A stretch of DNA of 58,294 bases from a virus (taxonomy: Duplodnaviria; Caudoviricetes), in IMG/VR virus record IMGVR_UViG_3300038379_000107, positions 1 to 58,294 of that record. One strand, 5' to 3'. Shown piece after piece: positions 7,820 to 58,294 of this stretch; positions within the stretch are counted from its first letter, which is position 1, and every line of letters begins with the position of its first letter. The notes beneath the pieces are model-generated. The model saw only the letters and a list, made by a program, of their open reading frames with translations. It ran no database searches and had not been told where the DNA came from. Position numbers and translations under genes: made by a program.

Positions 7820-8891
7820 CGGCGCGAGTCTGCCCTGTCATCTCAAGTGCAAGAAGATCATGGATCGTGCCGGAGCGTGTTCCTTCTACGAGGAGGATAT
7901 GGAGCCTACGCGCACCATCGCCTGGCTAGTTAGTTCCAATTCCGACTGGCTATTTGCGTGGGAGCAGGTGGACCCGGCCCTGCGCGACTTCGCCTACCAG
8001 AAACACATGGACAAGGTGAACAAATGGCTGGACGATGCTGAGCGCGTCATACGCGGATACTGCGCCAAGTACGGGCTGGGCGAGCCCATCATCCATCGTG
8101 ACATCAAGAGCCGAGTCAAGCGCACCAAGGAGTTGGATCGGTTCATCGACGAGCACTGCCTGGCAGGCGACCATCTGGTCATCCTGCATACGCCCTACCT
8201 GTCCGATGACAACCAGCTTTCCATGATGCGGACGATGGCGCGCATCAAGAAGTTGGCCAGTCGCAAGATTGTGCTGCATATGGTGGCGATGGACACCGAC
8301 TTCTCCAGCCCGCTAGCTGGGATGTTCCTGCATCACGGGTATCAGATTTCCACCTATGCCCGACCCGCCATGTACGACGATTTTGGCGATGAAGTGGTCA
8401 AGGGCCACATCCAGAGCGTGGGCGGCATGCGGTATGAGCGAGCTAGGAACCACTTGTTGTTCAACTGGATCGTGAGCATGATCCGCGACAAAGGCTACTC
8501 CATCAAGGAACTGGCAAGCTATGCAGGAAAATACTGGCGCGTCGTGGCCGTGGCCAAGGGCGGCAGAAAGTCGGTTCCCATTGTGCTGGCCATCACCAAG
8601 AGCAGGGAGACAGCGCGTGCCCTGGCCGGGAAAGATACCAAGGTGTGCGAGCATTGCATGAACTCTACGGACGATCCCTTTTGCGGCCTGTGCAGCCGTC
8701 GCACATCGCGCATTAAGATGCTCGTGGCCAGCAGGGGACTCATCTACAACTTCTTTCGCGGGTCGGATCGGTACAGCACCATCCTGGCCGACATCATGCG
8801 TACCTGGGAGTTGTACTGCAACAACAACCAAGCCCAGGATCGCAAGCCGTGGGCCAAGAGAATCAGAAAGAAAGATGTTGACCGCAAGTAA
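7686..8891 (+). CDS. serine recombinase/resolvase-like protein with degenerate active site (true start uncertain)
   Basis: resolvase-like pattern (I..YC...G, D..S...R..EL, GD.LVI, VLH....D.SSP.G); YxRVS replaced by WLVSS and DRLxR by PYLSD; C-terminal CEHC/CGLC. Confidence 0.6.
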   Translation: MVANQGGFMFTPAPWPTRPRLNCIYCRREANKTTGPNQRTEVVINGASLPCHLKCKKIMDRAGACSFYEEDMEPTRTIAWLVSSNSDWLFAWEQVDPALRDFAYQKHMDKVNKWLDDAERVIRGYCAKYGLGEPIIHRDIKSRVKRTKELDRFIDEHCLAGDHLVILHTPYLSDDNQLSMMRTMARIKKLASRKIVLHMVAMDTDFSSPLAGMFLHHGYQISTYARPAMYDDFGDEVVKGHIQSVGGMRYERARNHLLFNWIVSMIRDKGYSIKELASYAGKYWRVVAVAKGGRKSVPIVLAITKSRETARALAGKDTKVCEHCMNSTDDPFCGLCSRRTSRIKMLVASRGLIYNFFRGSDRYSTILADIMRTWELYCNNNQAQDRKPWAKRIRKKDVDRK

Positions 8892-8909
8892 AACATTTGG
8901 TAACATTTA
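8878..8909 (+). promoter_or_regulatory. conserved phage promoter, copy 1
   Basis: TTGACC-17 bp-TAACAT; 28/32 identical to 43334-43365(-). Confidence 0.85.
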
Positions 8910-8915
8910 ACCTCG

Positions 8916-9413
8916 ATGGATGAGACAGGAACTCAATCAAACGAGGATGTGATGGAGTGGACGCTGCGGATAGAGAACTGGATACCAGTGTCCGTGAACA
9001 AGCTGCTTGGGTCTCATTGGGGTAAGCGTAAGCGGCTCAAGCAGATGGACATGGACTTGATCATCGTCATGGCCAAGAAGGCTGGCATCCCGGCAGCAAC
9101 CTCACGACGCAGCGTCCACGTCCATATCGTTTACCCCAGGAAACAAAGGAGATACGATACCGACAATCTGTGCAAGTCGCTGCTCGACGGAATGAAGTAA
9201 GCTCGCCTGATTGTGGACGATAACCCAAAATGGCTGGCCGGTGTCACATTCACCGACAGCCGCAGCGAACTTGATCAACCCGTTGTCAATGAAGAAGGCC
9301 CAGTCGTGGTTCGCAACGACATGGCGATCATTGCGCTGATGAACGGATCAGTCTTGGAGGTTCGGTGCGAGTCGCGCCGGATGCGCAAGTACCGTCCCGT
9401 TCCGAACAACTAG
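8916..9413 (+). pseudogene. rusA: RusA-like Holliday junction resolvase with in-frame TAA
   Basis: YDTDNLCKSLLDGMK*ARLIVDDNPKW continues in frame across the TAA at 9198-9200. Confidence 0.75.
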
Positions 9414-9422
9414 GAGGATGGA

Positions 9423-9683
9423 TTGGATCATCGGTTAAGCCGTTTTCGCAAGTGGAACAGACTGGGGGACGTGGTGGGCACGAAGCAATTTTCCAAGGTC
9501 GCTGTCCTAACCCGCTTCATCTCACCGACAGAATACGTCTTTGAACGGCATTCCGATGGCAGGATTAAAACCTTCGGCAGCTACCAGGCTGCCTTCGATA
9601 AGGTGACGGACCATGAGAATCAGTTCGTCATGGAAATCTACCTATCACCTGACCGGGTGGAAGAGTTCAAAAGGAAGGCGTGA
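9423..9683 (+). CDS. hypothetical protein
   Basis: GGAGG RBS, TTG start. Confidence 0.6.
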   Translation: MDHRLSRFRKWNRLGDVVGTKQFSKVAVLTRFISPTEYVFERHSDGRIKTFGSYQAAFDKVTDHENQFVMEIYLSPDRVEEFKRKA

Positions 9684-9880
9684 TGAATTGGCTTGCTAAC
9701 TTCGGCCTCATCCTTCAGTGTTTGCTGGCCATCATTGCCATAGGCGCTGGGCTGATCCTACTGATCTGCCACGTTCACAATCACGTTACGGGCTACCGAT
9801 CCTGGCGGGCAGAGTGCCAGAGCGCCAAGAAGGAAGCTCACGATCTTCAGTTGCGTCTCAACCGTGGAACTAGCACGATA
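9680..9880 (+). CDS. small membrane protein (appears fused to the next gene in the ORF track)
   Basis: N-terminal TM helix; removing one G at 9866-9867 gives ...RLNRELAR*. Confidence 0.45.
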
Positions 9881-9904
9881 GCGTCCACAAAACAGGAGAA
9901 GCAC

Positions 9905-10558
9905 ATGACCGAACTCAAGGTATTTCGATTTGGAAAAGGCAAGCACAATACCCGTGAAGACGGAATGTGTGTCATGGAAGCGGTAGCGTATCTGGCCGGA
10001 GAGTCGCATAGCAACCATCCTCAATGTGCCTCTCCGGTCATTACCAAACTGGCCATCTGGCTTAATGACACTGCTGGCGATGAGTTGAGGCAAGAATTAC
10101 TGCTCGATCTTCCGTGGAGGCTAGTCGGAACGCGAGCATCCGATGAAACCGAACAACGGCGTGCATATATGGCTGCTGATTGGGTTGTAAGGTTTGTGAC
10201 TCCAATCGCTTTCAGGAGAGTCAATTTAGAAAAAGAGGCCGCTTCGCTTGAACACCTAAGCGAAGTAATTGACAAAGAAAGCGCGGGTACGGCGGCGCGG
10301 ACGGCGGCGGCGGCGGCGCGGACGGCGGAGGCGGTGGCTGCGTGGGCGGAGGCGGCGGCGGCGTGGGCGGCGGAGGCGGCGTGGGCGGCGGAGGCGGCGT
10401 GGGCGGCGGCGTGGGCGGCGGCGTGGGCGGCGGCGGATGGTGGTGTGGATCGTGACAAAATTCTACGCTCTTGTGCCGAACTGATCGGCAGAATGGCCAA
10501 GCTTACCGAGCCGCAAGAAGTAATGCGGGCCAGACAACGAGAACTACTTGGAGTGTGA
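9905..10558 (+). CDS. phage protein with Ala/Trp tract
   Basis: AGGAG RBS; CVMEAVAYLAGE..S.HP.C.SPVI and LND motifs; Ala tract. Confidence 0.7.
   Translation: MTELKVFRFGKGKHNTREDGMCVMEAVAYLAGESHSNHPQCASPVITKLAIWLNDTAGDELRQELLLDLPWRLVGTRASDETEQRRAYMAADWVVRFVTPIAFRRVNLEKEAASLEHLSEVIDKESAGTAARTAAAAARTAEAVAAWAEAAAAWAAEAAWAAEAAWAAAWAAAWAAADGGVDRDKILRSCAELIGRMAKLTEPQEVMRARQRELLGV
10289..10436 (+). repeat. (GCG)n-based coding microsatellite, second copy
   Basis: same codon vocabulary as 5661-5963. Confidence 0.9.
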
Positions 10559-10563
10559 TTAGC

Positions 10564-10815
10564 ATGAATGGACAATGCAACCTCTACTGGCTATCGTTTG
10601 TGCGCGCTGAAGGAAACGCAGGGTGCTGCATTGTCGAGGCAGTGTCAGCCATTGATGCGGCAAAGCAGTCGCACAGGTTGGGAATTAACCCTGGCGGGTC
10701 AGTTTTGATTTGTGAGATCGAGACGCTTGGACCATTCGAGAAGAACCGCCTCTACTCCAAGCAAGAGTGCAGCGAACTGGGTACAATCGCAGATGCCAAG
10801 ATAAAGTGGAGATGA
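10564..10815 (+). CDS. hypothetical protein
   Basis: YWLSF...GINPGG motif; operon packing. Confidence 0.6.
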   Translation: MNGQCNLYWLSFVRAEGNAGCCIVEAVSAIDAAKQSHRLGINPGGSVLICEIETLGPFEKNRLYSKQECSELGTIADAKIKWR

Positions 10816-10821
10816 ACTGAC

Positions 10822-11070
10822 ATGACCGACACCGCCGATTTGGCCGTCTCAGGATCGCCACCGCTTACCTGCGGAACCTGCAAGCACTGGCACAAGAAAA
10901 TCAACCCCCACAACATTCGTGACGCGCGCGGGGATTGTCGATTCAATCCTCCATGCGTGACCACGCTCCCACAGGGGGCAAATACCTTCTGTTTGTCTTC
11001 GTACCCATCCCTGCCAGATAGCTTTCCGGCATGTAGCAAGCATGAGGCTAAGGTAGCTATTGAGGGGTGA
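10822..11070 (+). CDS. small Cys-rich protein
   Basis: CGTCKHW...GDCRFNPP...AC.KH pattern common in phages. Confidence 0.65.
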   Translation: MTDTADLAVSGSPPLTCGTCKHWHKKINPHNIRDARGDCRFNPPCVTTLPQGANTFCLSSYPSLPDSFPACSKHEAKVAIEG

Positions 11071-11077
11071 TTTCGTC

Positions 11078-11105
11078 TTGACCGACCATGCTGGTTTGGT
11101 AGCAT
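11078..11105 (+). promoter_or_regulatory. promoter related to the 8878/43365 class
   Basis: TTGACC-16 bp-TAGCAT; shares TTTGGTA.CATTT. Confidence 0.55.
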
Positions 11106-11149
11106 TTCCCCATACGCCCCCAGGGGCCATGCTTACCAAGGAATGAACC

Positions 11150-11797
11150 ATGTCGATTCTCAACGCAGCATCAGTCAAGAATGCCCTTGGCGCAGCCCTG
11201 GGGCCAGGCGGGTCCAAGATGGCCGAAGACCTCGTGACCTTGTGGCTGGGGTCGGGAGTAACCAACTATAACTTCTCGACCGGGCTTGGCGCGCCGGCTG
11301 GGTCGAACGTGACTGCCCAGGAATGGGTCAGTGGCAACAGCCACACAACCATTCTGACGTTTACAAGTCGATCAATCACCATGACCGATGAAGCCGGCGT
11401 AGTTGCCTATGGCGGAACCAAGGTTTATGACTTTCCGGCTGGATTGATTCTGATTCGCACAGCCGTGGCCAATTTAACTATTACCAAGTCGGGATCGGGC
11501 ATCAATGCTGACTTTGATGGCGACTTTGGCGTTGGGACAACTACAGCGGGCAACAACAATGCTCTAGCCACGACAGAGCAGAACATTATCCCGACAACAG
11601 CTACGCCTCAAGCGGTGGCAGGAGTAACCACGGCCAAAGGGTTTAATGCAGCAGCTATCGCTCCGCTAGATGGAACCTCAACAGCTATAGATGTGTACAT
11701 CAACGGGCTCATAGATGATGCCGATCAGGATGGTGGCGGCGCATGGCTAATTAGCGGTGCGCTGACGCTCATTTGGGATTTAGGTGGCGACGTGTAA
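11150..11797 (+). CDS. putative virion decoration/cement protein
   Basis: G/T/A-rich, beta-rich composition; GGTKVYDFPAG.I.I motif recalled from phage structural proteins. Confidence 0.55.
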   Translation: MSILNAASVKNALGAALGPGGSKMAEDLVTLWLGSGVTNYNFSTGLGAPAGSNVTAQEWVSGNSHTTILTFTSRSITMTDEAGVVAYGGTKVYDFPAGLILIRTAVANLTITKSGSGINADFDGDFGVGTTTAGNNNALATTEQNIIPTTATPQAVAGVTTAKGFNAAAIAPLDGTSTAIDVYINGLIDDADQDGGGAWLISGALTLIWDLGGDV

Positions 11798-12013
11798 GGT
11801 GGAAATTGCTCAGACGCTGGGAAATAGAAATCTCCCTGTTTGTATCGCTCAGTGGAATGGCCTAGTAAACTAAACCACCGAACGAGAAGAATAGGGAACC
11901 CTGAAACCCTGGGCGCAAGCCTGGGGCTTCACTGTTTCTGTGCTAGAAGAAGACCTGTTGGATTGTCTGCACATTTTGCATCTAGATGCCCTTATTTTAG
12001 TTAGGAGTCCCCT

Positions 12014-12929
12014 ATGGGAGCCAAGCAACTCACTTATGCCGATGAGGCTCGGCAGAAGTTGCTCGCGGGCGTTTCCAAAGCTCGCAAAAGCCGTCAAATG
12101 TACCCTCGGGCCACGGGGCCGCAATGCCGTCATCGATAAAGGTTGGGGCGTGCCCAACATCACTAAAGACGGCGTCACTGTCGCTGAAGACATCGAACTC
12201 ACCGACCCCTACGAGAACATGGGGGCCCAGCTCGTCAAGGAAGCCGCCAGCAAGACTTCCGATGTCGCGGGTGATGGCACCACCACCGCAACGGTACTGA
12301 CCGAAGCCATCTATCGCGAAGGCCTCAAGGGCATTACCGCCGGGTCCGATCCGATGGCCATGTCTCGAGGAATCCTCAAGGCAACCGAAAAGGCCGTCGA
12401 GGAACTCAAGAAACTGGCCGAGAAAATCAACGCCAAAGACAAGAAGGAGATCAAGGAAGTCGCCACCATATCGGCGAATAACAACACCGAGATCGGGGAC
12501 TACATCGCTCAGGCTATGGACAAAGTCGGTTCCGACGGCGTCATCTCCATCGAAGAAGGCAAGGGGTTTGTCACCGAAGTCGATTGGGTTGAAGGCATGC
12601 AGTTCGACCGGGGCTATCTCTCGCCCCACTTCGTCACCGATCCTGAAAAGGTCATCTGCGAATACGAGAAGTGCTACATCCTCATCCACGAGGACAAGAT
12701 CGGCAACGCCAAGGATTTGGTCCCTCTTCTGGAAACCATCTCCGCGCTGCAGAATGCAGCCAGCGTCGCGGCCCTGTTGCTGACCACCGAAACCCTGATC
12801 GCCGATAAGCCCGAACCCAAGAAGGCGGGCGGCGACCATCACCATGACCACCACGGCGGCGGCATGGGTGGGATGGGCGGCGGCATGCCCGGCATGGGAG
12901 GAATGGGTGGCATGGGCGGCATGATGTAA
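12014..12929 (+). pseudogene. groEL: chaperonin GroEL, internally deleted in frame, with a +1 frameshift near codon 22
   Basis: [57 protein letters not shown]; jumps from LLETIS to ALQNAASVA; His-rich and GGM tail; extra A at 12077-12079. Confidence 0.92.
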
Positions 12930-13030
12930 TTCACGAGTACGCAAGGCGTGCTACTGAAACGAACCAACTTTTTAACACCGGACGGCACGCACAGCGGTGC
13001 CCTACTCAAGAATCAGAAGGATTCACCAAC

Positions 13031-13078
13031 ATGAAACTCAGGCCCCTCGATGACCGCGTGGTCGTCAACATCCCTTGA
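13031..13078 (+). pseudogene. groES: GroES N-terminal stub
   Basis: MKLRPLDDRVVVNIP* after an AAGGA RBS. Confidence 0.8.
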
Positions 13079-13155
13079 TGAACACATCACGTTAGCACAT
13101 GATTTGAGATCATGAACCGGGCCAGTTCGCGGGCAATGTGGGCTGGCCTACTTTA

Positions 13156-16100
13156 TTATCGTGCCTGATATTTCTCTTTAACCGCAATTCGGGCCTTCTC
13201 CTGCATGGCTCGATAGGCTTTCATGAGTTGCAGCATCTCTGGCGGGATTTGGTCTTCCATACCTTTGTACTGGCTTTCCATGACGATCTGGGGCTTGGTG
13301 CGGTAGTAAGGGCTCTTGTTGAGCATCTTCTCTATCGCTTGACGGGCGGCGATACTGGTAGCAGTCGCCTGATCCACATCCACCACCCTGGCCCCGGTCA
13401 GGAGGTTGAGGAAGTTGGTCAGCAACCCTTTCTTGTCGGCTTCGGCCAGTCGGTCGGCAGTGGAGAAGACGCGCGAGGCGGGCGTGGCTTGGACTGCTTG
13501 CGAGATGAACTTGCTAACATCGTCGGGAACGCCGATAGCCGACATGAGGCCGGAAGGCTTAAGGTCTTCCAGTTTGCGGCCTGAGAAGAGTTGGGTTCCT
13601 GTGCTCATTTCATAGATGGTTTTGATCAGGGGGTTGCTGGACGAGGCGGCACGCCTGATAGCTTCTCTGGGGCTTCCTGCACCCAAGGCAGCCAAGGCTC
13701 CAACCATTTCATCCTCGATGGACAGTCCAAAGCTGGCTAGGAAGCGCTGCTGGCCGGGATCGGCCCCAGGCAGGGGTACTGCCGCACCGGAGGAAACGTA
13801 GCTGGGTACGAAGCTATCATCCTGGCGACCGGAGTTGGCTACCTTGATGAGCGAGGTGATCGGGCCGGGGTCGCGGGAGAACTGATCCCCAATACGCCGC
13901 ATATTGGCTTTCGTGAACGAGTAGAAAGGTATAATGTTCCTTCCCCACTTGCGTTCCCATTCTGTCAGGTTTGAGTAGTCCAGGTGCGTGGTCTTAACCC
14001 GCTTGGCTGCCGCCACAGGGGACCAACCGTCGTCGATCAGGCTTTTGAACTGGGCCAGTCGTGATACCTGATTCTGGTAGTGCTGCGCCTCTTCCATCAT
14101 GCGCAGGTAGCCGCGCCCCATATCGGCAGCGCCACCCAGATACTTGGCTGCCTTGCTGGTCGGGTACATTTCCGAGAGCGGCAGGATGCCAACGGATCGG
14201 CGAGCCTCTTGTCCCATCTTGCCTGGAGCGGTCAATTTGATTTGATCGGCGAAGGTTTTGGCAAGCGATTTGTCGGACTGGATGGGGGCAATGTTGTAGC
14301 CAATCTCTCCGGTACGTTTCATGCCCTTGCCGATCAGGTCGCCTAGTTGATCGCCTACCACGCCATGAACCACAGCTTCCTCGAATACCTTTTGCATCGG
14401 ACCAAGCTTGGCGGCATCGGCAAGTCTGCCCGATGAGTAAGCTGCGGAACTAGCCAGGTTGCGGGCTGGGTTGGTTCCGGCCAGTCCCGTGTTGAGCGTG
14501 GCATCGGTCCAGTTACGCGACAAGTTGGCGATCCACGGAACAGTCACGCCATAGCGGAACCAGGTGGACATCTTGTCAAAGAGATTGGGATCAGCCACAT
14601 CCTGGTAGGCTGCCTTGAGTTCCTTGCCCATGCCCTTGACAATGGAAGACTTGACACCCATTTGTTCTAATGGCACATTGCCGCCAATTCTGCGCGACAA
14701 CTCGCTAGCCCCCGTCTCCATCCCCAACTCTTTGAGCGCATCGGCCAGGCTCATGTACTTGGCCGTATCGCCTGGCAAGGCTCGTTGCGCCGCCAGATCG
14801 CCTGAGTATTCCTTGAGCGTGTCGAGGATGTTGTTGAGAACGGGTTTCTGCTTGCCTGCAATGTTCTGGGCATAGCGGATAACATCGACGCTGGGTGACT
14901 GGCCGTAGAAGTAACCGCGCTTCACGATGGCAGGATCGGCCTGCGAAAGATGCTTGGCAAAGTCGTAGGACCACTTGGTAGCCACGCCACCCGTGTCCAT
15001 GACGAAATCAAGTGCATCTTGAAGGTGTTTACCCTGGATTTGTCCGCTACGAATCGCTTTTTCTACATCGTCCTGAGTAGAGGATAAAAGGTGTTTGGCG
15101 TTGGCCTGGATGTTGGCGGCAAGCGCAGCCGGGTCGGTCCCGCCTACACGGGCGATGCCGCTGAACTGCGGACTGGTCATGTAGCGTTCAACGTCCGTAG
15201 CTCCACCGGGAAGTTGACGATACAAATCTTCGCGGGCCATCTGCTGGCCCTTGAGTTGGTTGCCCGTGTCGGCCTGGCGGCGCGGGAAGTATTCGGTGTA
15301 TCCGCCATGATGCTCCAACTTGCCGCCGTGACGGACGAAATCAACGTACTCAGGATCGAAGTAGTTCCTGGCATCGACAGCCGCCTTCTGAGCCGTGCTT
15401 CGCAAGCTGGCTTCAAAAGTCGGATCGAGAATACCTGTGGGCAGGATGGGTGAGCCGGTTTCGGCGGCAGAGCGGATAGCCTGATTGGACAGTCTGACTG
15501 CTTCCTGGCCGGTGAAGCCGTGTTGCTGAAGGAGGTTGAGCGCCTGACTTTCCGTGTCGATGATCGGCTTGCCTGCCCGCATGGAATCGACAAGCATCTG
15601 CTCGGAGATTTGCCGGTTCTTCTCGGCTACCAATTGGTATTCGCCTGTGCCGGAGTGGCCCACTCCAGGAGTGAACATGGATTTGACGTAAGCCCAGGGT
15701 TGGATTTCAGTCCCAGGAATGCGGGCGACCGTAGCCCAGTCGGATAGATTGCCTAGCCACGTTCCGATGGACTGCCCGATCTTCCCGGTCCCCAGAGGCA
15801 GGACGTTGGCCTTGGCCCCGGTCAGGGCTTCGACATACCAGGGCAGGGACTTGACCCCAAACAGACCACCCTGGCCAGCGGCAATCCTCTCCCCGATCCG
15901 GGGAAGCAGGGTTCCTGCCTTCTCGGCTGCCAAGCCGCCCTTTACCCCCTTGGTGAGAGCCCCTGCCGGTCCGGTCACGAGGTTGAGCGGGTCGGTCAGG
16001 ATGTCCATCGTCAAACCGGCAGCAAAGTTGCCCCAAGTATCCTCTGGACCTACGATGCCCCAATTCCGCAGCAGATCGCGGCCAGAGCGTTGTTTTGTCT

Positions 16101-16341
16101 GGATGAGACCCTGCCCAGGAACATGGCTAGTAATGCCAAAGGTGTCCGATAATGGGATCAGATTGGCCAAGGCCGACAAATCGCCTTCCAGAAGCCCGTA
16201 GAGGGCTTGCTGGGGCTTCCCAAGACTCTCTCCCAGGAACTTGATCGGCGCAAACCAAGCCGAGTTAGCCATTGCGGACAGCCAAGACTGGTCCTCAATG
16301 TCCTGCGGTTGGTACAGATCGTATAAATCCTGTAGGGCCAT
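13156..16341 (-). CDS. large internal virion/DNA ejection protein
   Basis: 1061 aa, helical; DILTDPLN and DYSNLT..E...R.IIPFYSF motifs; last gene of the tail block. Confidence 0.7.
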   Translation of the reverse strand: MALQDLYDLYQPQDIEDQSWLSAMANSAWFAPIKFLGESLGKPQQALYGLLEGDLSALANLIPLSDTFGITSHVPGQGLIQTKQRSGRDLLRNWGIVGPEDTWGNFAAGLTMDILTDPLNLVTGPAGALTKGVKGGLAAEKAGTLLPRIGERIAAGQGGLFGVKSLPWYVEALTGAKANVLPLGTGKIGQSIGTWLGNLSDWATVARIPGTEIQPWAYVKSMFTPGVGHSGTGEYQLVAEKNRQISEQMLVDSMRAGKPIIDTESQALNLLQQHGFTGQEAVRLSNQAIRSAAETGSPILPTGILDPTFEASLRSTAQKAAVDARNYFDPEYVDFVRHGGKLEHHGGYTEYFPRRQADTGNQLKGQQMAREDLYRQLPGGATDVERYMTSPQFSGIARVGGTDPAALAANIQANAKHLLSSTQDDVEKAIRSGQIQGKHLQDALDFVMDTGGVATKWSYDFAKHLSQADPAIVKRGYFYGQSPSVDVIRYAQNIAGKQKPVLNNILDTLKEYSGDLAAQRALPGDTAKYMSLADALKELGMETGASELSRRIGGNVPLEQMGVKSSIVKGMGKELKAAYQDVADPNLFDKMSTWFRYGVTVPWIANLSRNWTDATLNTGLAGTNPARNLASSAAYSSGRLADAAKLGPMQKVFEEAVVHGVVGDQLGDLIGKGMKRTGEIGYNIAPIQSDKSLAKTFADQIKLTAPGKMGQEARRSVGILPLSEMYPTSKAAKYLGGAADMGRGYLRMMEEAQHYQNQVSRLAQFKSLIDDGWSPVAAAKRVKTTHLDYSNLTEWERKWGRNIIPFYSFTKANMRRIGDQFSRDPGPITSLIKVANSGRQDDSFVPSYVSSGAAVPLPGADPGQQRFLASFGLSIEDEMVGALAALGAGSPREAIRRAASSSNPLIKTIYEMSTGTQLFSGRKLEDLKPSGLMSAIGVPDDVSKFISQAVQATPASRVFSTADRLAEADKKGLLTNFLNLLTGARVVDVDQATATSIAARQAIEKMLNKSPYYRTKPQIVMESQYKGMEDQIPPEMLQLMKAYRAMQEKARIAVKEKYQAR

Positions 16342-18952: not shown

Positions 18953-20005
18953 TCACCAGATGGGAGTGAAGTCGTTATGTTCGTAAATGTTTTCCCAGAC
19001 TAGCCGTGTGTCGTCGTAAGGACACCCTGTAATTAGGGCAACACTTGCCTGGTCCACTTCGTTGTCACCGAGAGAAGGCCAGGGAATACTGGCGGGCATG
19101 CCGACCATGTCGCCTCCAGAAGTGCAGGTTCCAAAGTAGTAACCAATTCCAGGGATATCCCATTGGTTGAACCATTCCGGGAAAATTGAAAGTCCAAATT
19201 GCACTGTAATGATGCGCCACCTGGTTGTATCTGACACAGTCTGTCCAGTTTGGTAAGGAGTTAGGTCAATAGTTAAGGCGTGGCCCAGAGTCCATTCCCA
19301 TACCGCAATAGTGCTGGTAACGCAAAATTCGACCGTGGGGTCGCTGCTGCTGCGCCAACCCGTGCAGGTGACGGCGGAATTGGCTTTCTCGGAACGGACC
19401 ACGTTCATATGCCATTTGTTGCCGCGCTTGGTCGCCACAGTGTCGGTGCGCCATTGTTCCGAAACAGTTACGGGAATGATCTGCCCAGCCACAGGAGGAG
19501 TGGTCCCCAGGGCGACCGATGAGAGCGGCCTGCCCGTAACGGTAGCCGAATATGTTTGCCCGGAAGCAGGCGGGAAGGGATCGTCCACTACCTTGCTGGG
19601 CGTGACATTGTCGCTAGCCTGGTGCGGTTCGATCCCAGCGACTACGACAGGGATAGTCGTATCCCCGGCAGAAGCATTGCTGGTCACGCGGGCAGGCGTA
19701 GTTCTGGTACGCATCTCCACTCGACTGATCAGGCGGGTTTCCAGGCCGCCGCCAACCTTGGTAGGCAGGCCGGTTTGTGGCTTGGAAACCAGGCTGGAGG
19801 AAAGGTGGGTAGCCGATGGATCGCCTACGCCCAGAGTAGTTCCGCCCTGGGGATCGGTGATGACTGTGCGATCCAGGGCACGATTCTGCGAGGGCAGGCG
19901 GGCCAGGGATGAGAGGGCTTGGGCCACGTCGCGGGCCAGGTCGTCATTGGATTGGTACGACTTACCCTTGATGTTGGCGGCAACCTTGCCCCAGTAGCGG
20001 TCCAT
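18953..20005 (-). CDS. tail-associated protein, paralog A
   Basis: shares IKG.S...LAR..A.A.S.LAR.PS, QGGTTLGVGDPSA.H.SS and TKR..KW with paralog B. Confidence 0.75.
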   Translation of the reverse strand: MDRYWGKVAANIKGKSYQSNDDLARDVAQALSSLARLPSQNRALDRTVITDPQGGTTLGVGDPSATHLSSSLVSKPQTGLPTKVGGGLETRLISRVEMRTRTTPARVTSNASAGDTTIPVVVAGIEPHQASDNVTPSKVVDDPFPPASGQTYSATVTGRPLSSVALGTTPPVAGQIIPVTVSEQWRTDTVATKRGNKWHMNVVRSEKANSAVTCTGWRSSSDPTVEFCVTSTIAVWEWTLGHALTIDLTPYQTGQTVSDTTRWRIITVQFGLSIFPEWFNQWDIPGIGYYFGTCTSGGDMVGMPASIPWPSLGDNEVDQASVALITGCPYDDTRLVWENIYEHNDFTPIW

Positions 20006-22527
20006 TAACCGGCTCCGGTAACGGCGATCTCATTGATGACGGGGCGGCTTTCGCCGGAAGAACCATCGAACCTGAATTGGAAGGAGTAGTCAAGGGGAGC
20101 ATCCTTCTCCTTCTGGGCATCGAGATTTTCCTTGACTACTCCCATGCTCGTAGACATATCCAGGGCGATCTGCTTGGTGGATACGGTGCGACTCTTGCTG
20201 GCCGCCCCCCAGGTGGCACGAGCGGCAACCATCGTAGCTGGAGAGGCCAGGCCATCCTTGTAGATGGTAAGCGTAGCATAGAGTGGTGTGGACGAGTTGG
20301 GATCAACGTAGGCTGCCATGCTGATGGGTTGCTGACCTTCCATCATGTCGGCATCGAACGCGCCCGTTACCAGCTTGTACTTGATGCCTCCCAACTGAAC
20401 CTTGTCTCCCTTTTGTGGCAGGATGTCCATTGGCGTGCCGAACTGAATCTCGGCTCCGTTCTGATAGGTGATGACGCGATCCGTGCCAGCCGACTGCCCG
20501 TTGACGATGACGGCAGGAACACCCAGGCACGTCTTGGGCTCCTCGGCGAGCGTCAGGGAGAAAGGTGAGTTGACCGACTCGATCTCCAGCAGCGTTCCGC
20601 CCGCTTCGATCAAATCCAAAGACCCCGAATCAGCCGCAAGAATCTTGCTCTCACTCGTACCCAGAAGCGGTCGGCCCGTGATAGCCAGCGACATGCACGA
20701 TGCAGTAATCGGACGAGGATACTCCTCGATCCAGAATCTCTGCTTGCGATAATCGTAACAGATTGCGTGGCGTGGATAGAGGCTTCCTGCCAACGCAACG
20801 TACCACTTGATGGTCCCAATCTCTTGATGCACCACTGCATGCCACATACAGGTGTGCGCGTTCCAGTTGAGCCTAAGACCATCCGTGTCCTCCCTCCAGA
20901 GATCGGTAATCGGACCGCTCACCTGGGACGGGTTAGGCCCGCCCGTAAAAGCGTGAATACCTTCCCGGTCCAGCATGTAGCACGCCCCCTCGACAGTCAC
21001 GGCACAGGACTGGTTGATGCAGCCGCGCCCCTTGCAAGCCGGATAGATTTCGCCGTCGATGGCCGGGTCTTCACTGAAGCTGAAGCGATAGATGTTGCGA
21101 GTCTTGAGGACGTAGAGGGCGTCGCCATAGACCACAAGCCCCGTAGGAATGTCGCCATCCTGGGGCAAAAGGGCGGAAGCCGTGGTCGGCCACGCTTCCG
21201 GCCCGGAGAGATCGCTCCAGCGAACCAGCATCTTTTCGGCAGGATAGCTCTCGATGTTGTAGATGGCGAAGTTGTCGGTTGCCCCCTGGTAAGGGCGTTC
21301 GATGGTGAGTTCCTGAGTAGCCGGGTCCACTTCGATAATGGTGTACTGGCTGTTGCCGCAAGTAAACAATCTGCCTACCATCGGAACCGACCATTGCGTC
21401 CCGATACCTTGCACCGTGGTTGACCCATTTGTCACTTGGCACGAACCGTCGTAGTAGTCGCGGAAGCCGATGGCGCTGATGCGGCTCTTGAACTCGGCCA
21501 TGTAGGGCTTGTCTGCCGGAGGCAACCCGTAGAGGTAGGGGATGGTGTAGCCATCCACGTCGGTAAAGGTGATGACATCCGAGAGGGCCAGTTGCGTATC
21601 GGACTTGCTGCTGGTGAATTCGGTACTAGCCAGATCGGTCGTCTCGATGTCCAGGTAGAAGTTCTGCACCTGTCCTGTGGTGTTCCTCCAGATTTGGCGT
21701 CTGACGATTCTGGGATCGGTCGGAACTTCAATGTTGGCGTAAGAGACATAAAGCTGGCTCGTGACAGTAGCAGGGGACGATATGGGTGAAGGATCGCTCA
21801 CATTGCCATCGTAATCCACCCAACGCTGGAAGCACTGGTACTGGCCGGAAATGGTGGAGCCGAAAGCTCTTCTGATAGTTGTGTCGTAGACTTCAACATC
21901 AAATACAAGATAGTCCCATTCTTCTCTTTGTGGATGTGGCGATGCTGGCGTGCGCTCTGGAGCCCAAGTGAAGCCATACATAAGGCGTTCAAACCGCAGT
22001 AAGGCACCAGGGCTGTATCCATAACCAGGAGGAAAATGAGGAGGAAAAAATATCTCATCGGGCAAGGGGACAATACGATCCTTATACTGATTGAACTGAG
22101 AAATTCTTGCGTTCAAGGACAAGCGACCTTGTTCAGTAAGACGCAAAGAAGAAAAGCCAGCAAAAAAGGTTTGCCTTGTTGATCGGACAGGTCCATATTG
22201 GGAAAAATCAAAATGAACAATCTTTGTGCCCACTCCCGCCGTGGAGCTATAGTCGCCATCTTGTAAAAGGCGGGGCACAACCAAAGGAGCGGGCACGCCT
22301 GCTTCGGTCAAGATGCGTTCCTTGCGCCGCATCCTGAGCATGGAACCCAAGCCCGTGGCTACGAGCAGCGTGCCGTTGGAAGCCTGAAGCATGGTCGCTG
22401 GGCAGCCGGAAGGCAGGAGGTCGGCAATGATTCCCTGGCGGCGAATGGACCCGACCGTGGAAATGCCGATGGTCGCTGATCCGCTGATCAGGACCGACAA
22501 CCCACCAGTGATGAGTAAAAACCGCAT
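20005..22527 (-). CDS. tail nozzle/stabilisation protein (P22 gp10/T7 gp12-like)
   Basis: 840 aa, beta-propeller-like (VRWS...PEAWP, GLVVYGDALYVLK, GCI); VTNGSTTVQG insert; podoviral position. Confidence 0.7.
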   Translation of the reverse strand: MRFLLITGGLSVLISGSATIGISTVGSIRRQGIIADLLPSGCPATMLQASNGTLLVATGLGSMLRMRRKERILTEAGVPAPLVVPRLLQDGDYSSTAGVGTKIVHFDFSQYGPVRSTRQTFFAGFSSLRLTEQGRLSLNARISQFNQYKDRIVPLPDEIFFPPHFPPGYGYSPGALLRFERLMYGFTWAPERTPASPHPQREEWDYLVFDVEVYDTTIRRAFGSTISGQYQCFQRWVDYDGNVSDPSPISSPATVTSQLYVSYANIEVPTDPRIVRRQIWRNTTGQVQNFYLDIETTDLASTEFTSSKSDTQLALSDVITFTDVDGYTIPYLYGLPPADKPYMAEFKSRISAIGFRDYYDGSCQVTNGSTTVQGIGTQWSVPMVGRLFTCGNSQYTIIEVDPATQELTIERPYQGATDNFAIYNIESYPAEKMLVRWSDLSGPEAWPTTASALLPQDGDIPTGLVVYGDALYVLKTRNIYRFSFSEDPAIDGEIYPACKGRGCINQSCAVTVEGACYMLDREGIHAFTGGPNPSQVSGPITDLWREDTDGLRLNWNAHTCMWHAVVHQEIGTIKWYVALAGSLYPRHAICYDYRKQRFWIEEYPRPITASCMSLAITGRPLLGTSESKILAADSGSLDLIEAGGTLLEIESVNSPFSLTLAEEPKTCLGVPAVIVNGQSAGTDRVITYQNGAEIQFGTPMDILPQKGDKVQLGGIKYKLVTGAFDADMMEGQQPISMAAYVDPNSSTPLYATLTIYKDGLASPATMVAARATWGAASKSRTVSTKQIALDMSTSMGVVKENLDAQKEKDAPLDYSFQFRFDGSSGESRPVINEIAVTGAG

Positions 22528-34849: not shown

Positions 34850-35348
34850 GCGTTAGTTCCTTGTCGGATTCCATTCGAGCATTACGTCGGGCTGGCGCAG
34901 GATGGGACGAGGCGGCAGCGTTCAGTTTGGAGATCATGGCCGTCTGGGACCGGCACGTCTCTTCAACTACCTTGAGTTGCGCCTCCAATACCGAAAGCCT
35001 GCCCATCAAAGCCTCGATCATCCCGGCATATTCCAGCACAGAAATCTTGCTGACCAGTTCCCAGCCTACGTCGTCGTACTGGGTGCTGTGAATGAACTTG
35101 GGGTCAGTGACGTGAACGGCATTCTCCACGACGACGTTGGTCATGCCGCGCTGGAGAATCTGGATTGTCAGTCTGCGGTCCACCGGATCACCCGGTCTCC
35201 AGTTGATCCGCTGGGGCGGCATCACTACGCCCACTTCCCAGACGTTCCTGTTCCTGCGCTTGACCAGAACCATCTGGCCAGCCGACACGGCAGGCGTGCC
35301 GGTGAACTCCTCGTGCAAGCGCGTCAATTCCATTGGGTCACTGATCAT
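34836..35348 (-). CDS. hypothetical protein with coiled coil
   Basis: start MISDP overlaps the TerL stop (ATGA). Confidence 0.6.
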   Translation of the reverse strand: MISDPMELTRLHEEFTGTPAVSAGQMVLVKRRNRNVWEVGVVMPPQRINWRPGDPVDRRLTIQILQRGMTNVVVENAVHVTDPKFIHSTQYDDVGWELVSKISVLEYAGMIEALMGRLSVLEAQLKVVEETCRSQTAMISKLNAAASSHPAPARRNARMESDKELTLATS

Positions 35349-37147
35349 GAGATTATCTTTCTCCGCATAAGTTGAGGATACATCTGCTCGTACATCCACA
35401 GCCTGGGATTGCGGTCGATCTTGCGCAACTCCTGGGCTGAGTAAGTCTGGCTGTTCGTCTTGTTGGTTCTCCCCGGAGGAGTGAGCCACTTGAACTCGCG
35501 GCAGCAGGCGTAGCGGACGCAATCCATGAGATCATTCTTCTTTCTCCTGATCTCATCGGTCGGCTTGCCGTCCTCGCCGCGCTTCTTCTGATAGTAGCGA
35601 AACTCCCAGAGCGTGTCGGGAACTTTACCCCGCATGCACACGAATTTGGGTGGACCCGAACGCGGCTCAAGATGCTGCTTGACGCGCTCGATCCCTGAGT
35701 TGAGATTGTCTTCCCCGTGAATGAACCTGTCAATACGAGGTTCGACTCCGGCTTCCTTGAGGGCGTTCCAGTAATGCTCGGCAATGGTGTAGCCGTCTTC
35801 CTGCCGGATGCGGCCACGGTGGTTGTCGAAGGTGATGTCCTCGACCCAGTGCTGAAGCTTCTCCAGCTTCTCCTTGACCGCCCTGGCCATCTTGAACGCC
35901 GTGCAGTTGTAGATCAGAATCTCGTCGAAGGCGATGAGGCGATCAGGACATTCGGGCAGGTAGTGCGGACTGCTCTCAGCAAGGACAGCAACGAACAAGG
36001 CAGCCGCCCTGGTGTTGCCGGGGTCCAGAATCATGTAGACCGCATCGTCCCAGGTAATGTCGAATGGGTCGATGACGTGCTTGTGGTGGTCAAACTCCGG
36101 GTAGATCAGGAACTTGGTGAACGCCGACTGCCCATGCACCTTGGCAACAGCCGCTTCAGGATCGTCTTCTTCGATCTTTTCGGCGGCAGCCTCGAATGCC
36201 TGCTGGTCGATGAAGGGATTGTTCTTGGACTGCAACTCGTAGAAGCTGGTCTGATTGATCGGGTCTCGATCCTTCATGCCCGGCTTGTTAGCCCGCGCCT
36301 GGAGGTTGTAGAAGGTGGGCGTAGCGTTCTCAGGCGTGGCCGACCAGAAGACGCGCCCACGCCGGGACACGACGCGCATGCGCATTTCCGAAAGCCACGT
36401 CTTGGCCCGTTCATGTTCCTCGTCCATCCACACCAGATCGAACGACACGCCGCGCGGAGGGTCGGAACGGAACGAGTAGAAGTAGATGTTGGTTCCATTG
36501 ACCAAGCTGACCATGTTGGGAATTTCTTCCTTGGCGTTATCCCAACCTACGTTCTTGACCATGCGCGGCGGAATGAGTGGCTGAGCATCCTGCCACTTGA
36601 GAATGTTGGCGACATCGTCTGGATTGTCGTAACGGGGAACGCGCCACAGACCGGGAGCGTAGTTGTAGACCTTGAACGTCTTGCCATGTCTGAAGAGGAT
36701 GTAATAGAGTAGGCGCAGGTGGGCTTCGTTTGGGCCGACAACCGCGATCTCCAGTTCCCTGGGCTTGTACTTGCCATCGACAATATGACGACCTGTAGCG
36801 GCCATCGCCACTTCCGCCCCGGCAGCTACCGACTTCCCGGCACGGTTGGGGCCGACGAGCCCCACCTCATGGGACATGCACTGATGGAAGGTGGACGCAT
36901 CGGGAGTGGGGACGTAGACCGACAGGGCTTCGCCGTTGCGAACGTTGAGTTCGTTGAGAATGAGTTCTAACTGGTAGGTGTGATCGAGCGACCAGCCATT
37001 GCATATCTCGATACCGGATCGGCGCGTGTTGATCTCACGCTCGATCTCGTGTATCGTTTCCTGGGCAAAATCGTTCTGGCCAAAGATGGCGGCAAAACGC
37101 TGTTGCTCAGCCTTGAGTTGGGCCTTGGAGCCCCGTGGCCGTCCCAT
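35345..37147 (-). CDS. terL: terminase large subunit
   Basis: Walker A GPNRAGKS, Walker B LVWMDEE, SATP, nuclease ILDPG and NDLMDCVRY. Confidence 0.92.
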   Translation of the reverse strand: MGRPRGSKAQLKAEQQRFAAIFGQNDFAQETIHEIEREINTRRSGIEICNGWSLDHTYQLELILNELNVRNGEALSVYVPTPDASTFHQCMSHEVGLVGPNRAGKSVAAGAEVAMAATGRHIVDGKYKPRELEIAVVGPNEAHLRLLYYILFRHGKTFKVYNYAPGLWRVPRYDNPDDVANILKWQDAQPLIPPRMVKNVGWDNAKEEIPNMVSLVNGTNIYFYSFRSDPPRGVSFDLVWMDEEHERAKTWLSEMRMRVVSRRGRVFWSATPENATPTFYNLQARANKPGMKDRDPINQTSFYELQSKNNPFIDQQAFEAAAEKIEEDDPEAAVAKVHGQSAFTKFLIYPEFDHHKHVIDPFDITWDDAVYMILDPGNTRAAALFVAVLAESSPHYLPECPDRLIAFDEILIYNCTAFKMARAVKEKLEKLQHWVEDITFDNHRGRIRQEDGYTIAEHYWNALKEAGVEPRIDRFIHGEDNLNSGIERVKQHLEPRSGPPKFVCMRGKVPDTLWEFRYYQKKRGEDGKPTDEIRRKKNDLMDCVRYACCREFKWLTPPGRTNKTNSQTYSAQELRKIDRNPRLWMYEQMYPQLMRRKIIS

Positions 37148-50104: not shown

Positions 50105-50591
50105 TCATTTTACCCTGATTTTTCGCGTCTCGCCAAACCAGCCGTACATGACCCCCGTATTACGGTCGTAGATCGGCACGCCCCTGGCTTCACACCAAAC
50201 ATCCCGCCCCGCCTCTGTCACAAAGCGGAAGCGAACCACATACTGCCGCCTCTCCGCATGAGCCGCCTTGACTTCCCGCATGACGGCATCAGTATCGTCA
50301 GGGTGGAGAATCACCCGCCAGTCCAGACCAAGGAACTCTCGTTCCGTTCGTCCTGCTAGTCGGCACAAGGCAGGATTGACCAAAACGCATCGCTCGTCCG
50401 CATCAGTCTCCCAACGGGCAGTCGAGCAAAGTTGCCAGATGGCTTTGAGTTTGAGAATCTCTTTGTGGTCGTCAACGAAGGCGGGAATCGGCGGCTCTTT
50501 CCGCCATGAATCGGCCCGTCCAAAAAACAAAGACTGTAACAAAGACCATTGTCAATGCGATGGCAACGATGCGAATACTGCGTCCGTTCAA
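50105..50591 (-). CDS. membrane-anchored PAS-domain protein, +1 frameshift
   Basis: TTG start gives a TM helix; removing one base at 50483-50485 joins it to the PAS fold (VNPA...G...LHPDD...RF...G..VW...RG.P). Confidence 0.8.
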
Positions 50592-56293: not shown

Positions 56294-56833
56294 ATGACGT
56301 TTGGATCATTGTTCTCTGGCGTGGGCGGAATGGATTTAGGACTTGAAAGGTCTGGTATGGTTTGCAAGTGGCAATGCGAGATTGATCCGTTCTGCCGCAA
56401 GGTACTGGCCAAGCACTGGCCGGGGATTCCGTGCTACGAGGATGTCAAGCAAATTGGGGCCGACGTTCCGGAGATTGACTTACTGTGTGGCGGGTTTCCG
56501 TGCCAACCACACTCCGTCGCCGGCAAACGCAAAGGAAAAGACGATGACCGCAACCTTTGGCCAGAGTGCATTCGGCTTGTTCGACTGCTTAGACCCAGTT
56601 GGTGTCTGTTTGAAAACGTCCCTGGCATCCTCACTACGATCTTTGGGGATGTCGTCAGTGATCTTCGAGGAGCGGGTTACGAAGTCAGGCCACTGGTACT
56701 GGGCGCTGAGGACGTTGGTGCGCCGCACAGAAGGAAGCGAGTGTGGATCGTGGCCTACCACCAGCCAGCCAGATTACAAAGGAGCGGTAACAGCCAGCAG
56801 GAATGTGGCAACCGGCATTTGAGCAAGGGTTGA
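56294..56833 (+). pseudogene. C5 cytosine DNA methyltransferase, C-terminally truncated
   Basis: LFSGVGG (I), GGFPCQ (IV), ENV (VI) and H.R.RVWI (VIII); motifs IX/X not seen. Confidence 0.8.
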
Positions 56834-56923: not shown

Positions 56924-57298
56924 ATGGATAAGCCGACGTTGCCCAAACGATGGCAACCGCCTTTTGAAGCAGTTGATGACGGTGATGGAAGGTGCTCTGT
57001 TTACGCTAGTGACACTTATGTGTGCATTGGTGATTATGCACGGCTTCGAGATGATGAAGCTAAAGCCATCGCCTACGCCCTGAACCAGGTCTACGGCCCG
57101 AACGGACTTGAGGCTGAGAACGAGCGGCTGAAATCCGCCCTTGAATCAATTCAACTTGTCGTCAGGGCGCAAAAGGAAGATGCCCCTGAGATGGCATCTG
57201 TCAGCAGGTTGCAGTATCTGCACCAAGTTATTGATAGTGTTGGGCAAGAACTGAAAAAGCGGGTTGCGCTTTTGGAGAATCCACAGGACGAATTGTGA
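56924..57298 (+). CDS. cassette protein 1 (unique N-terminus plus shared coiled-coil C-terminus)
   Basis: AAGGAG RBS; C-terminal half encoded by both repeats. Confidence 0.7.
   Translation: MDKPTLPKRWQPPFEAVDDGDGRCSVYASDTYVCIGDYARLRDDEAKAIAYALNQVYGPNGLEAENERLKSALESIQLVVRAQKEDAPEMASVSRLQYLHQVIDSVGQELKKRVALLENPQDEL
57103..57205 (+). repeat. direct repeat A, copy 1 (at least 103 bp)
   Basis: identical to 58192-58294. Confidence 0.95.
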
Positions 57299-57331
57299 AC
57301 CAAGAACCCGAAAGGAAGGTGAGAGCGATGG
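57249..57331 (+). repeat. direct repeat B, copy 1 (83 bp)
   Basis: identical to 57669-57751; includes stop, RBS and ATG. Confidence 0.95.
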
Positions 57332-57718
57332 CCTGGGTGTTTAAGTTCGGGCAGATGGTGCGGCACATTGATACTAAACGGATCGCGTTTGTGATTGCCG
57401 ACAGTGCTCCTGCGCACGCTTATGTCACGGTTTGGCCAAGCGGCGCGCCGGAACCCGCTGAATGGCATCGTGCAAACATCGAACCCATCCCCACCGGCGA
57501 CTGGCGGGAGAGGTGGGAGGAGAAGTCGAAGCATGGATGGCTGGTTCTTTATGTAAACGAGCAGGCCGCTCTTTCCGTACAGCAAGTTGCACTTGGCATA
57601 GATGTTGTTCGCGGCCTTGGCGACCTCATCCCCCGCATCCCGCCCGCGAAAAGAGAGCGAATTGGAGCAACTGAAAAAGCGGGTTGCGCTTTTGGAGAAT
57701 CCACAGGACGAATTGTGA
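57328..57718 (+). CDS. cassette protein 2 (+1 frameshift near its end)
   Basis: removing one A at 57649-57652 gives ...PAKESELEQLKKRVALLENPQDEL*. Confidence 0.6.
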
Positions 57719-57751
57719 ACCAAGAACCCGAAAGGAAGGTGAGAGCGATGG
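57669..57751 (+). repeat. direct repeat B, copy 2
   Basis: identical to 57249-57331. Confidence 0.95.
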
Positions 57752-57984
57752 AACACCCAGCGATAAAAGACGCAAAAGATATCTGCACACGGTATCGCAA
57801 GTGTGGTGCCATCATTGTGAGTTTTGATGGGAACCTGTTTCATTGCGCCTCTTATGGCTTCACTCGTGCGTGGTGTGATGAGATGCGGAAGGTTGTTGAT
57901 CAGTTTTACAAACTCATCGAATCAGAAGTAATCGTCATAACCCCACCCACCGGGCGGGAGAGAGGAGAGGATGAAAACGTATAG
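57748..57984 (+). CDS. hypothetical protein
   Basis: starts at the ATG supplied by repeat B; ASYG.T...C motif. Confidence 0.6.
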   Translation: MEHPAIKDAKDICTRYRKCGAIIVSFDGNLFHCASYGFTRAWCDEMRKVVDQFYKLIESEVIVITPPTGRERGEDENV

Positions 57985-58153: not shown

Positions 58154-58294
58154 ATGGATGTGATGGAAGTTCCAGAAGGCACTTACTTCAGCGGACTTGA
58201 GGCTGAGAACGAGCGGCTGAAATCCGCCCTTGAATCAATTCAACTTGTCGTCAGGGCGCAAAAGGAAGATGCCCCTGAGATGGCATCTGTCAGC
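58154..58294 (+). CDS. cassette protein 3, partial at the window end
   Basis: MDVMEVPEGTYFS runs in frame into GLEAENERLKSALES (repeat A). Confidence 0.6.
   Translation, partial: MDVMEVPEGTYFSGLEAENERLKSALESIQLVVRAQKEDAPEMASVS
58192..58294 (+). repeat. direct repeat A, copy 2
   Basis: identical to 57103-57205; the sequence ends inside it. Confidence 0.95.

Follow-up and report, generated by a model that had tools for sequence, protein, structure and literature searches.

The window, by which we mean the whole stretch of DNA analysed, is an IMG/VR phage record of 58,294 bases that is classed as linear and has a CheckV completeness of 89%. In a simple ORF map, the genes of a plus-strand arm run up to position 11797, and a long minus-strand arm extends from 13156 to about 37000 and beyond. 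The latter carries the structural and packaging genes, with a helicase and an Erf-like annealing protein farther along. The two arms converge at 11.8-13.2 kb, a convergence of transcription that had already been recognized in the first-pass annotation of this DNA, and it is in this gap that a piece of a groEL-groES operon is found (Table 1). Only nine of 30 large proteins match a PHROG family and, since the terminase has no match among 50,697 GenBank phage records, the phage belongs to a poorly charted lineage. A pattern search with the 1061-aa protein brought up no close phage relatives. There are no tRNA genes within the 58-kb window, and an Rfam scan of 11000-13400 returned nothing at E <= 1.

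Several features were recorded elsewhere in the genome. A 292-aa protein (phrog_3416; 9680-10558, +) has an odd Ala/Trp-rich repeat, AAWAEAAAAWAAEAAWAAEAAWAAAWAAAWAAA, near its C-terminus, and a small PAS-domain protein of 145 aa is encoded at 50105-50542 (-) (PAS_3, E 3.3e-16). The ORF of a C-5 cytosine methylase (56294-56833, +) is just 179 aa long and aligns to positions 1-175 of a 324-position profile; it may represent a short form or another case of truncation. Two copies of the peptide GLEAENERLKSALESIQLVVRAQKEDAPEMASVS are encoded, one at 56924-57298 and the other at the extreme right end of the contig, at 58154-58294, and NQEPERKVRAM is repeated within 57295-57984. Direct repeats in this position may bear on the genome termini.

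The groEL-groES piece (12014-13079, +) bears three lesions: a frameshift at codon 22, an internal deletion of 261 codons and a groES cut at 15 codons. The first-pass annotation had read all three from the letters, together with an intact ribosome binding site, and each of these readings stands: the AGGAG precedes ATG 12014, the +1 shift comes from one extra A in 12077-12079, and groES' stops after 15 codons (13032-13079). In the frame of the native ATG, a stop is met at 12137-12139, after 41 codons, where the nearest relative (P0002, see below) is uninterrupted. The GroEL reading resumes one base on and runs to the stop at 12927-12929, and the product expected if the +1 were an error is indeed 304 aa long, as first calculated. 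The next in-frame start, ATG 12036, has no ribosome binding site; it is the one used by the 297-aa gene call in the databases (P0001).

The fragment matches the Pfam profile PF00118 (E 2.4e-37; 129 bits, for a cut-off of 34.3), but only over profile positions 1-214 of 490. In a phmmer search of the PDB, query residues 2-224 match GroEL 20-240 (22-241 in 1aon_A), with an E-value of 2.8e-91 to solved GroEL, and query residues 216-246 then match GroEL 492-522. The in-frame jump, which the first-pass annotation had set between residues of about 240 and 503, is placed at 12743|12744 by blastn and codon comparison. The blastn alignment with relatives, at 72-75% nucleotide identity over 12078..12743, ends at 12743, and 261 codons are missing (262 in two of the seven relatives compared by blastn and by codons). 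From the PDB match combined with the E. coli sequence, we take the missing residues to be 242-502 in E. coli numbering. The deletion takes out the greater part of the apical domain and of the second equatorial segment along with the second intermediate segment, and with these 261 codons gone the full equatorial-intermediate-apical-intermediate-equatorial architecture (~545 aa) is no longer present. The GDGTTT motif and the HHHDHH/GGM tail are retained.

Downstream, groES is 100 and 106 aa long in two relatives (L082 and L083), against 15 codons in the phage, so that the piece holds no intact co-chaperonin gene. The right edge of the host-derived DNA lies near 13067, after about 12 homologous groES codons. 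The left edge is uncertain, somewhere in 11798-11954. A related contig from another sequencing run (X3) fits from 11954 on, which hints that the host DNA begins about 60 nt ahead of the ATG, downstream of the place where a promoter would be expected. Base composition does not distinguish the fragment (GC 58.5% and GC3 0.75, versus 56.3% and 0.65 +/- 0.07 for the phage genes, with a maximum of 0.77).

The short palindromes noticed earlier on both flanks are confirmed as stable hairpins. Judged from sequence and folding energy, the one at 11895-11938, whose core at 11917-11929 is listed as terminator-like, resembles a terminator that separates the 215-aa gene from the groEL piece. The downstream hairpin is terminator-like on the plus strand (z -3.3, versus z -0.85 on the minus strand).

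Table 1. Coordinates of the groEL-groES piece, of the phage genes mentioned and of the contigs of run X1 that tile the locus
Feature	Position	Strand	Observations
215-aa phage gene, phrog_11997, function unknown	11150..11797	+	Final gene of the plus-strand arm; PHROG E 2.1e-22
Hairpin followed by a U-rich stretch, between the 215-aa gene and groEL'	11895..11938	+	-23.3 kcal/mol, z -3.4; 1 of 200 shuffles as stable
5' leader, host-type, with ribosome binding site AGGAG	11954..12013	+	Related X3 contig aligns from 11954; its 36 bases farther upstream misfit
groEL' codons 1-21, native start frame	12014..12076	+	ATG 12014 with AGGAG ahead; N-terminus identical to P0002
AAA run with one extra A (+1 frameshift, codon 22)	12077..12079	+	
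groEL' codons 22-243 (E. coli about 21-241)	12078..12743	+	First equatorial and first intermediate segments, start of apical domain
In-frame deletion junction, 261 codons (783 nt), E. coli 242-502	12743..12744	+	blastn and codon comparison
groEL' C-terminal 61 codons and stop (ALQNAAS...)	12744..12929	+	Last equatorial strand and helix, His-rich GGM tail; PDB chain 492-522
groEL-groES spacer, 102 nt	12930..13031	+	96 nt in L082, 157 nt in L083
groES', 15 codons and stop, MKLRPLDDRVVVNIP	13032..13079	+	GroES likeness (RPLDDRVVV) ends near 13067
13-bp hairpin followed by a T-rich run, abutting the stop of the 1061-aa gene	13107..13160	+	13 pairs at 13119-13149; -27.3 kcal/mol, z -3.3
1061-aa phage structural-module gene	13156..16341	-	Final gene of the minus-strand arm
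Virion or internal-virion protein	20005-22527	- arm	
Terminase large subunit	35345-37147	- arm	
X1 contig, 1.8 kb	10800-12233		Depth 17.8; phage gene, leader, groEL' start, frameshift
X1 contig, 703 bases	12227-12929		Depth 22.8; deletion junction
X1 contig, 31 kb	12900-14200+		Depth 17.6; GGM tail, spacer, groES', phage arm

Origin of the fragment and probable host

Among 185,579 species genomes, the best matches to the fragment are found in a Gemmataceae MAG (L082, 73%) and a Fimbriiglobus MAG (L083, 71%). In both, a groEL1 whose product ends in a His-rich GGM tail is followed by groES and groEL2, and it is this planctomycete operon order that accounts for groEL preceding groES in the phage. 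The nearest named relatives are Gemmataceae, at 71-76% amino acid identity, and the best metagenome contig is 78% identical. The nearest sequence in a large protein collection is P0002, a 315-aa partial GroEL on a 1.6-kb contig, which is 93% identical over 243 residues. P0002 reads without interruption across the site of the phage frameshift and, after LLEVIS, goes on with KANRPLLIIAED, that is, into the apical domain; it thus displays the ancestral state for both the frameshift and the deletion.

A tree built by quick search from 68 N-terminal GroEL parts groups the fragment with P0002 as a pair (SH-aLRT 99). The pair is joined by P0003 and P0004, and the sister clade of this group (96) contains the Gemmataceae GroEL1 sequences. 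This placement suggests that the host is probably a planctomycete near, but outside, the sequenced Gemmataceae, of Gemmataceae or Gemmatales kind, an assignment that is approximate because the named relatives are just 71-76% identical. The origin from Planctomycetota, surmised at first from gene order and the His-rich tail, is thus borne out by the genome matches, the operon type and the tree.

A portal-like match (34% identity, E 4e-58), present in one of 201 genomes sampled from the order to which the Gemmataceae MAG belongs, lends weak backing to a planctomycete host. In another observation on this order, a MAG (G157) has portal-like pieces on two short contigs, C585:2717-3754 and C455:4134-4946 (L253 and L254), with 34% and 29% identity to a 688-aa protein of the phage; the first piece contains one in-frame TGA.

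Three sequencing runs, X2-X4, hold only short groEL-like contigs (word shares of 0.05-0.08). The groEL1-like contig in X2 agrees at 151 of 151 bases, and that in X4 has three other letters and two gaps over 213 bases. These contigs cannot separate phage from host, and they are uninformative on habitat.

Reality of the junctions and a possible route of capture

Run X1, the probable source run, holds 0.99 of the sampled words, compared with 0.05-0.08 for the three other runs. In the Logan contigs of X1, made with another assembler, three contigs tile the locus with 0 differences (Table 1). No reading without the extra A is seen there (0 of 17.8 depth), and the related contigs of X3 and X4 lack the extra base. 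No single X1 contig covers the whole locus: the breaks fall at 12227-12233 and 12900-12929, both inside groEL', in its most conserved and most repetitive parts, where many contigs of other organisms pile up. The tiling argues against a chimera. X1 may, however, be the same sample from which the phage contig came, and the agreement is therefore a re-assembly and not independent proof.

The only syntenic relative, a viral record with 29-60% protein identity (L162/G001), has homologues of the terminase, the portal, an 840-aa, a 226-aa, a 230-aa, the 1061-aa and the 215-aa proteins in this order, all on one strand. The 1061-aa protein is 29% identical to its homologue over about 1120 aa and is collinear with the terminase, portal and 840-aa genes. 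In this relative, the 215-aa homologue (L162 7965-8636; G001 10732-11346) follows the 1061-aa homologue after 10 bp, on the same strand. In the phage, the corresponding gene at 11150-11797 is inverted and the host piece stands between it and the 1061-aa gene. Homologues of the 215-aa gene occur at nine viral loci; beside the syntenic relative, it is present in eight other viral contigs in otherwise unrelated contexts, and one locus (L168) gives two adjacent tblastn matches, at 8001-8618 and 8875-9372. The gene behaves as a mobile module.

No repeats above chance were found at the edges of the fragment or at those of the putative inverted segment. A direct repeat of 13 nt, identical at 11 positions, flanks the host-derived piece at 11851-11863 and 13137-13149 (GTGGAATGGCCTA and GTGGGCTGGCCTA); its score of 16 compares with a shuffle mean of 15.1, the control being a different segment pair.

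The first-pass annotation had offered an assembly chimera and an excision scar as possible origins, and both have to be weighed against a capture by the phage. The assembly artefact would be a mis-join of two phage ends, or of phage and bacterial contigs, through conserved groEL words. It is true that both X1 breaks coincide with the groEL' stretches of highest conservation and repetitiveness, at which hundreds of other contigs pile up, that the 215-aa gene is inverted with respect to the only syntenic relative, and that the whole locus is seen in no independent sample (one run at 0.99, the others at 0.05-0.08). Nevertheless, each of the three junctions is spanned by a separate X1 contig at even depth (17.8, 22.8 and 17.6), from the same reads, and every abnormal feature lies inside a single contig. 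Moreover, the host pieces on both phage arms keep the order and orientation of one operon, G001 has homologues of the two flanking phage genes side by side, and no inverted or direct repeat above chance exists at the supposed mis-join, all of which makes a chimera improbable. A scar left by specialized transduction would mean that a prophage beside the groEL1 operon took adjacent DNA with it on imprecise excision. The host DNA is indeed contiguous and runs collinearly with a real operon, the phage has an Erf-like annealing protein of its own, and there is the portal-like match in one of the 201 genomes of the Gemmataceae MAG's order. This origin is not favoured, since no integrase or recombinase family was found in 57 ORFs scanned with Pfam or 30 scanned with PHROGs, sets that take in only part of the small ORFs. 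In addition, no att-like context was found, the site lies between two structural-module genes with just 10 bp between them in the relative and would be an unlikely attachment site, and the internal deletion and the gene inversion would require further events. We thus regard an excision scar as very unlikely.

A capture from the host remains the preferred reading of the locus. About 1.1 kb (roughly 11954-13067) would have been taken from a host groEL1-groES operon, recently, through illegitimate recombination of the microhomology or template-switch type, the partners being the host chromosome and replicating phage DNA. One complex event, or a short series, at the late operon end could have brought the host DNA in and skipped 783 nt, and the same event possibly inverted the neighbouring 215-aa gene. 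The Erf-like annealase of the phage could have helped. The piece would have persisted because its position is neutral. The junctions, microhomologies and timing in this scheme are inferred.

Inert remnant or working protein

In the Gemmataceae-like relatives, groEL1 is preceded by a sigma-54-type site, TGGCAC-N5-TTGC, 65-155 nt before the ATG; nine of 11 have 9-10 matches out of 10, and the other two have 8. Examples are found at L172:4805-4819, at L174:4791-4805, in L176 and in other groEL1 upstream regions. A conserved leader motif (GAGATTCCCT-like) lies about 25 nt past this site, and the ribosome binding site of the relatives' groEL1 is a conserved GAAAGGAGAT. In the phage, no TGGCAC-N5-TTGC was found in 11798-12013, either at 8 of 10 positions or with up to two mismatches, and no sigma-70-like site was found in the same interval. 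Over the whole window, the motif with up to two mismatches is at chance level (70 found versus 71 expected); its sole perfect copy is at 57797-57811 (-). A MAFFT alignment paired 11800-11840 with the sigma-54 site and leader of the relatives. This pairing was rejected as an alignment artefact, the spacing being wrong (TGG-AAA-TTGC).

The deleted form was searched for in several collections, which may omit the window's own record. Among the best 80 viral loci none exceeds 62% identity and none matches end to end, and a 30-mer across the 12743|12744 junction has 0 exact matches in viral contigs. None of the five viral records with a homologue of the 215-aa gene has a GroEL. None of 272 matching GenBank phage records covers at least 80% of the query, and the best metagenome contig (78%) is among 80 kept that include no end-to-end match. 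The form was likewise not found in genome contigs or, at near lengths, in a set of 5.8 billion proteins. The 297-aa product makes up a one-member cluster, present on two contigs of which the longer is this phage record. The deleted form is thus seen in no other viral contig, GenBank phage or protein cluster. A search for the same deletion in related phages, as the first-pass annotation had advised, accordingly gave nothing in the viral contigs and GenBank phages searched, only one distant syntenic record being available.

The state of the retained codons was assessed by conserved columns, relative rates and branch lengths, dN/dS being unusable because the DNA of the relatives (72-75% identical) is saturated. 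At columns conserved among 100 reference GroELs, the fragment violates none of 36 invariant ones, one of 65 at >=97% and four of 91 at >=90%; 25 of the 100 references do as badly or worse in this last class. Of 17 differences between the fragment and P0002, with P0003 and P0004 as outgroups, eight are private to the phage, all of them conservative, versus five private to P0002. The terminal branches of this pair in the 68-sequence tree are 0.038 and 0.039. Third codon positions make up 32 of the 38 coding positions listed as differing in the contigs of other runs. Besides the three lesions, the retained codons are without extra decay and the sequence resembles a live allele. Either the capture was recent or the remnant is under selection; since no extra decay is visible, the capture looks recent rather than old. 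Of the earlier description of a decaying host fragment, the host origin stands, with three disabling lesions, no native promoter and no relatives that carry the piece; the retained codons are not visibly decayed.

We consider it quite probable that the locus is an ordinary captured pseudogene, a recent remnant of a planctomycete groEL1-groES operon that is most likely inert, because the frame breaks off at codon 22, 261 codons have been lost and groES is cut, because the sigma-54 promoter was left behind and a terminator-like hairpin stands upstream, and because the frameshift takes the native start out of the GroEL frame, ATG 12036 being devoid of a ribosome binding site. Two points run counter to this: an in-frame deletion and well-kept codons would also be expected from selection on a shortened protein, and gene callers did call the 297-aa ORF from ATG 12036.

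In a competing proposal, a shortened GroEL of 297-304 aa would be expressed, from ATG 12036 or, if the extra A were an error, from the native start, and act as a decoy or poison subunit that enters or binds host GroEL rings and so alters the activity of the chaperonin during infection. In its favour, the deletion keeps the frame, conserved columns show no excess of changes, the branch is no longer than that of the live relative and the ribosome binding site before ATG 12014 is intact; the fragment also keeps elements of intra-ring contact, namely the N-terminal strand, the stem loop 34-52 and the C-terminal strand 518-522. On the other hand, a deletion has a one-in-three chance of being in frame anyway, and both assemblies have the frameshift in their consensus, no variant being seen (0 of 17.8 depth). 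ATG 12036 lacks a ribosome binding site, no promoter was found, a hairpin stands upstream, and the form is a singleton, present in no other phage or protein cluster. The missing residues 242-502 include the catalytic D398 and the nucleotide-site residues 415-495, as well as most of the apical domain that binds substrates and GroES, residues 241 and 503 belonging to different domains. Without them, we would expect neither native folding of the apical remnant nor ATP hydrolysis. The chaperonin decoy suggested in the first-pass annotation thus finds no positive evidence and, given the frameshift, an expressed fragment has little likelihood. A more specific version, in which the phage carries a dominant-negative, equatorial-only subunit that enters host GroEL rings and disables or redirects the chaperonin during infection, is highly improbable. 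It supposes that the frameshift is lost or bypassed in part of the population, or that an internal start is used.

Relation to known systems

The chief value of this piece would be as a host link, tying a phage lineage that is otherwise unplaceable to Gemmataceae-like Planctomycetota, a phylum with very few known phages. It also offers a snapshot of host-gene capture before decay, with sharp junctions, an internal deletion and the inversion of an adjacent gene. With the host genome known, the piece could reveal the type of illegitimate recombination.

The closest counterpart is the planctomycete operon of L082 and L083, which the phage piece resembles in having groEL ahead of groES with about 100 nt of spacer between them, a His-rich GGM tail, 71-76% amino acid identity and its placement in the tree. 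It differs from this operon in being frameshifted at codon 22, in lacking 261 codons and in having groES cut at 15 codons; it is also devoid of groEL2 and of the sigma-54 promoter and is set in phage DNA.

Host gene fragments and morons are found at the module boundaries of tailed phages, as part of phage mosaicism, and the piece is like them in being foreign DNA in an intergenic gap between transcription units, with hairpins on either side. Morons, however, have an intact ORF and carry a promoter and a terminator of their own, whereas the ORF of the phage piece is broken, promoter searches found none and, of such signals, only the downstream hairpin is present. GroEL has also been reduced to a fraction of its length in the minichaperone, which is the isolated apical domain (about residues 191-345 or 191-376). 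The phage fragment is the opposite of this construct, with the apical domain mostly deleted (242-376 gone) and the equatorial N-terminal half kept.

Cpn60-family sequences in phage genomes are otherwise represented by gp146 of phage EL, a full-length divergent chaperonin (PDB 6tmt; bioRxiv 10.1101/2020.02.24.962803), and by the chaperonins of virioplankton, which are full-length and form divergent viral lineages (PMC5649160). The first of these, 6tmt, is a weak PDB match to the fragment (E 1.2e-16). Both are full-length chaperonins with a function shown or presumed. The fragment, in contrast, is host-like (93% identical to the cellular-type partial GroEL P0002), truncated, broken and unshared, and no other viral contig or GenBank phage carries the form. 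It fits the known kind of a host gene fragment in a phage genome.
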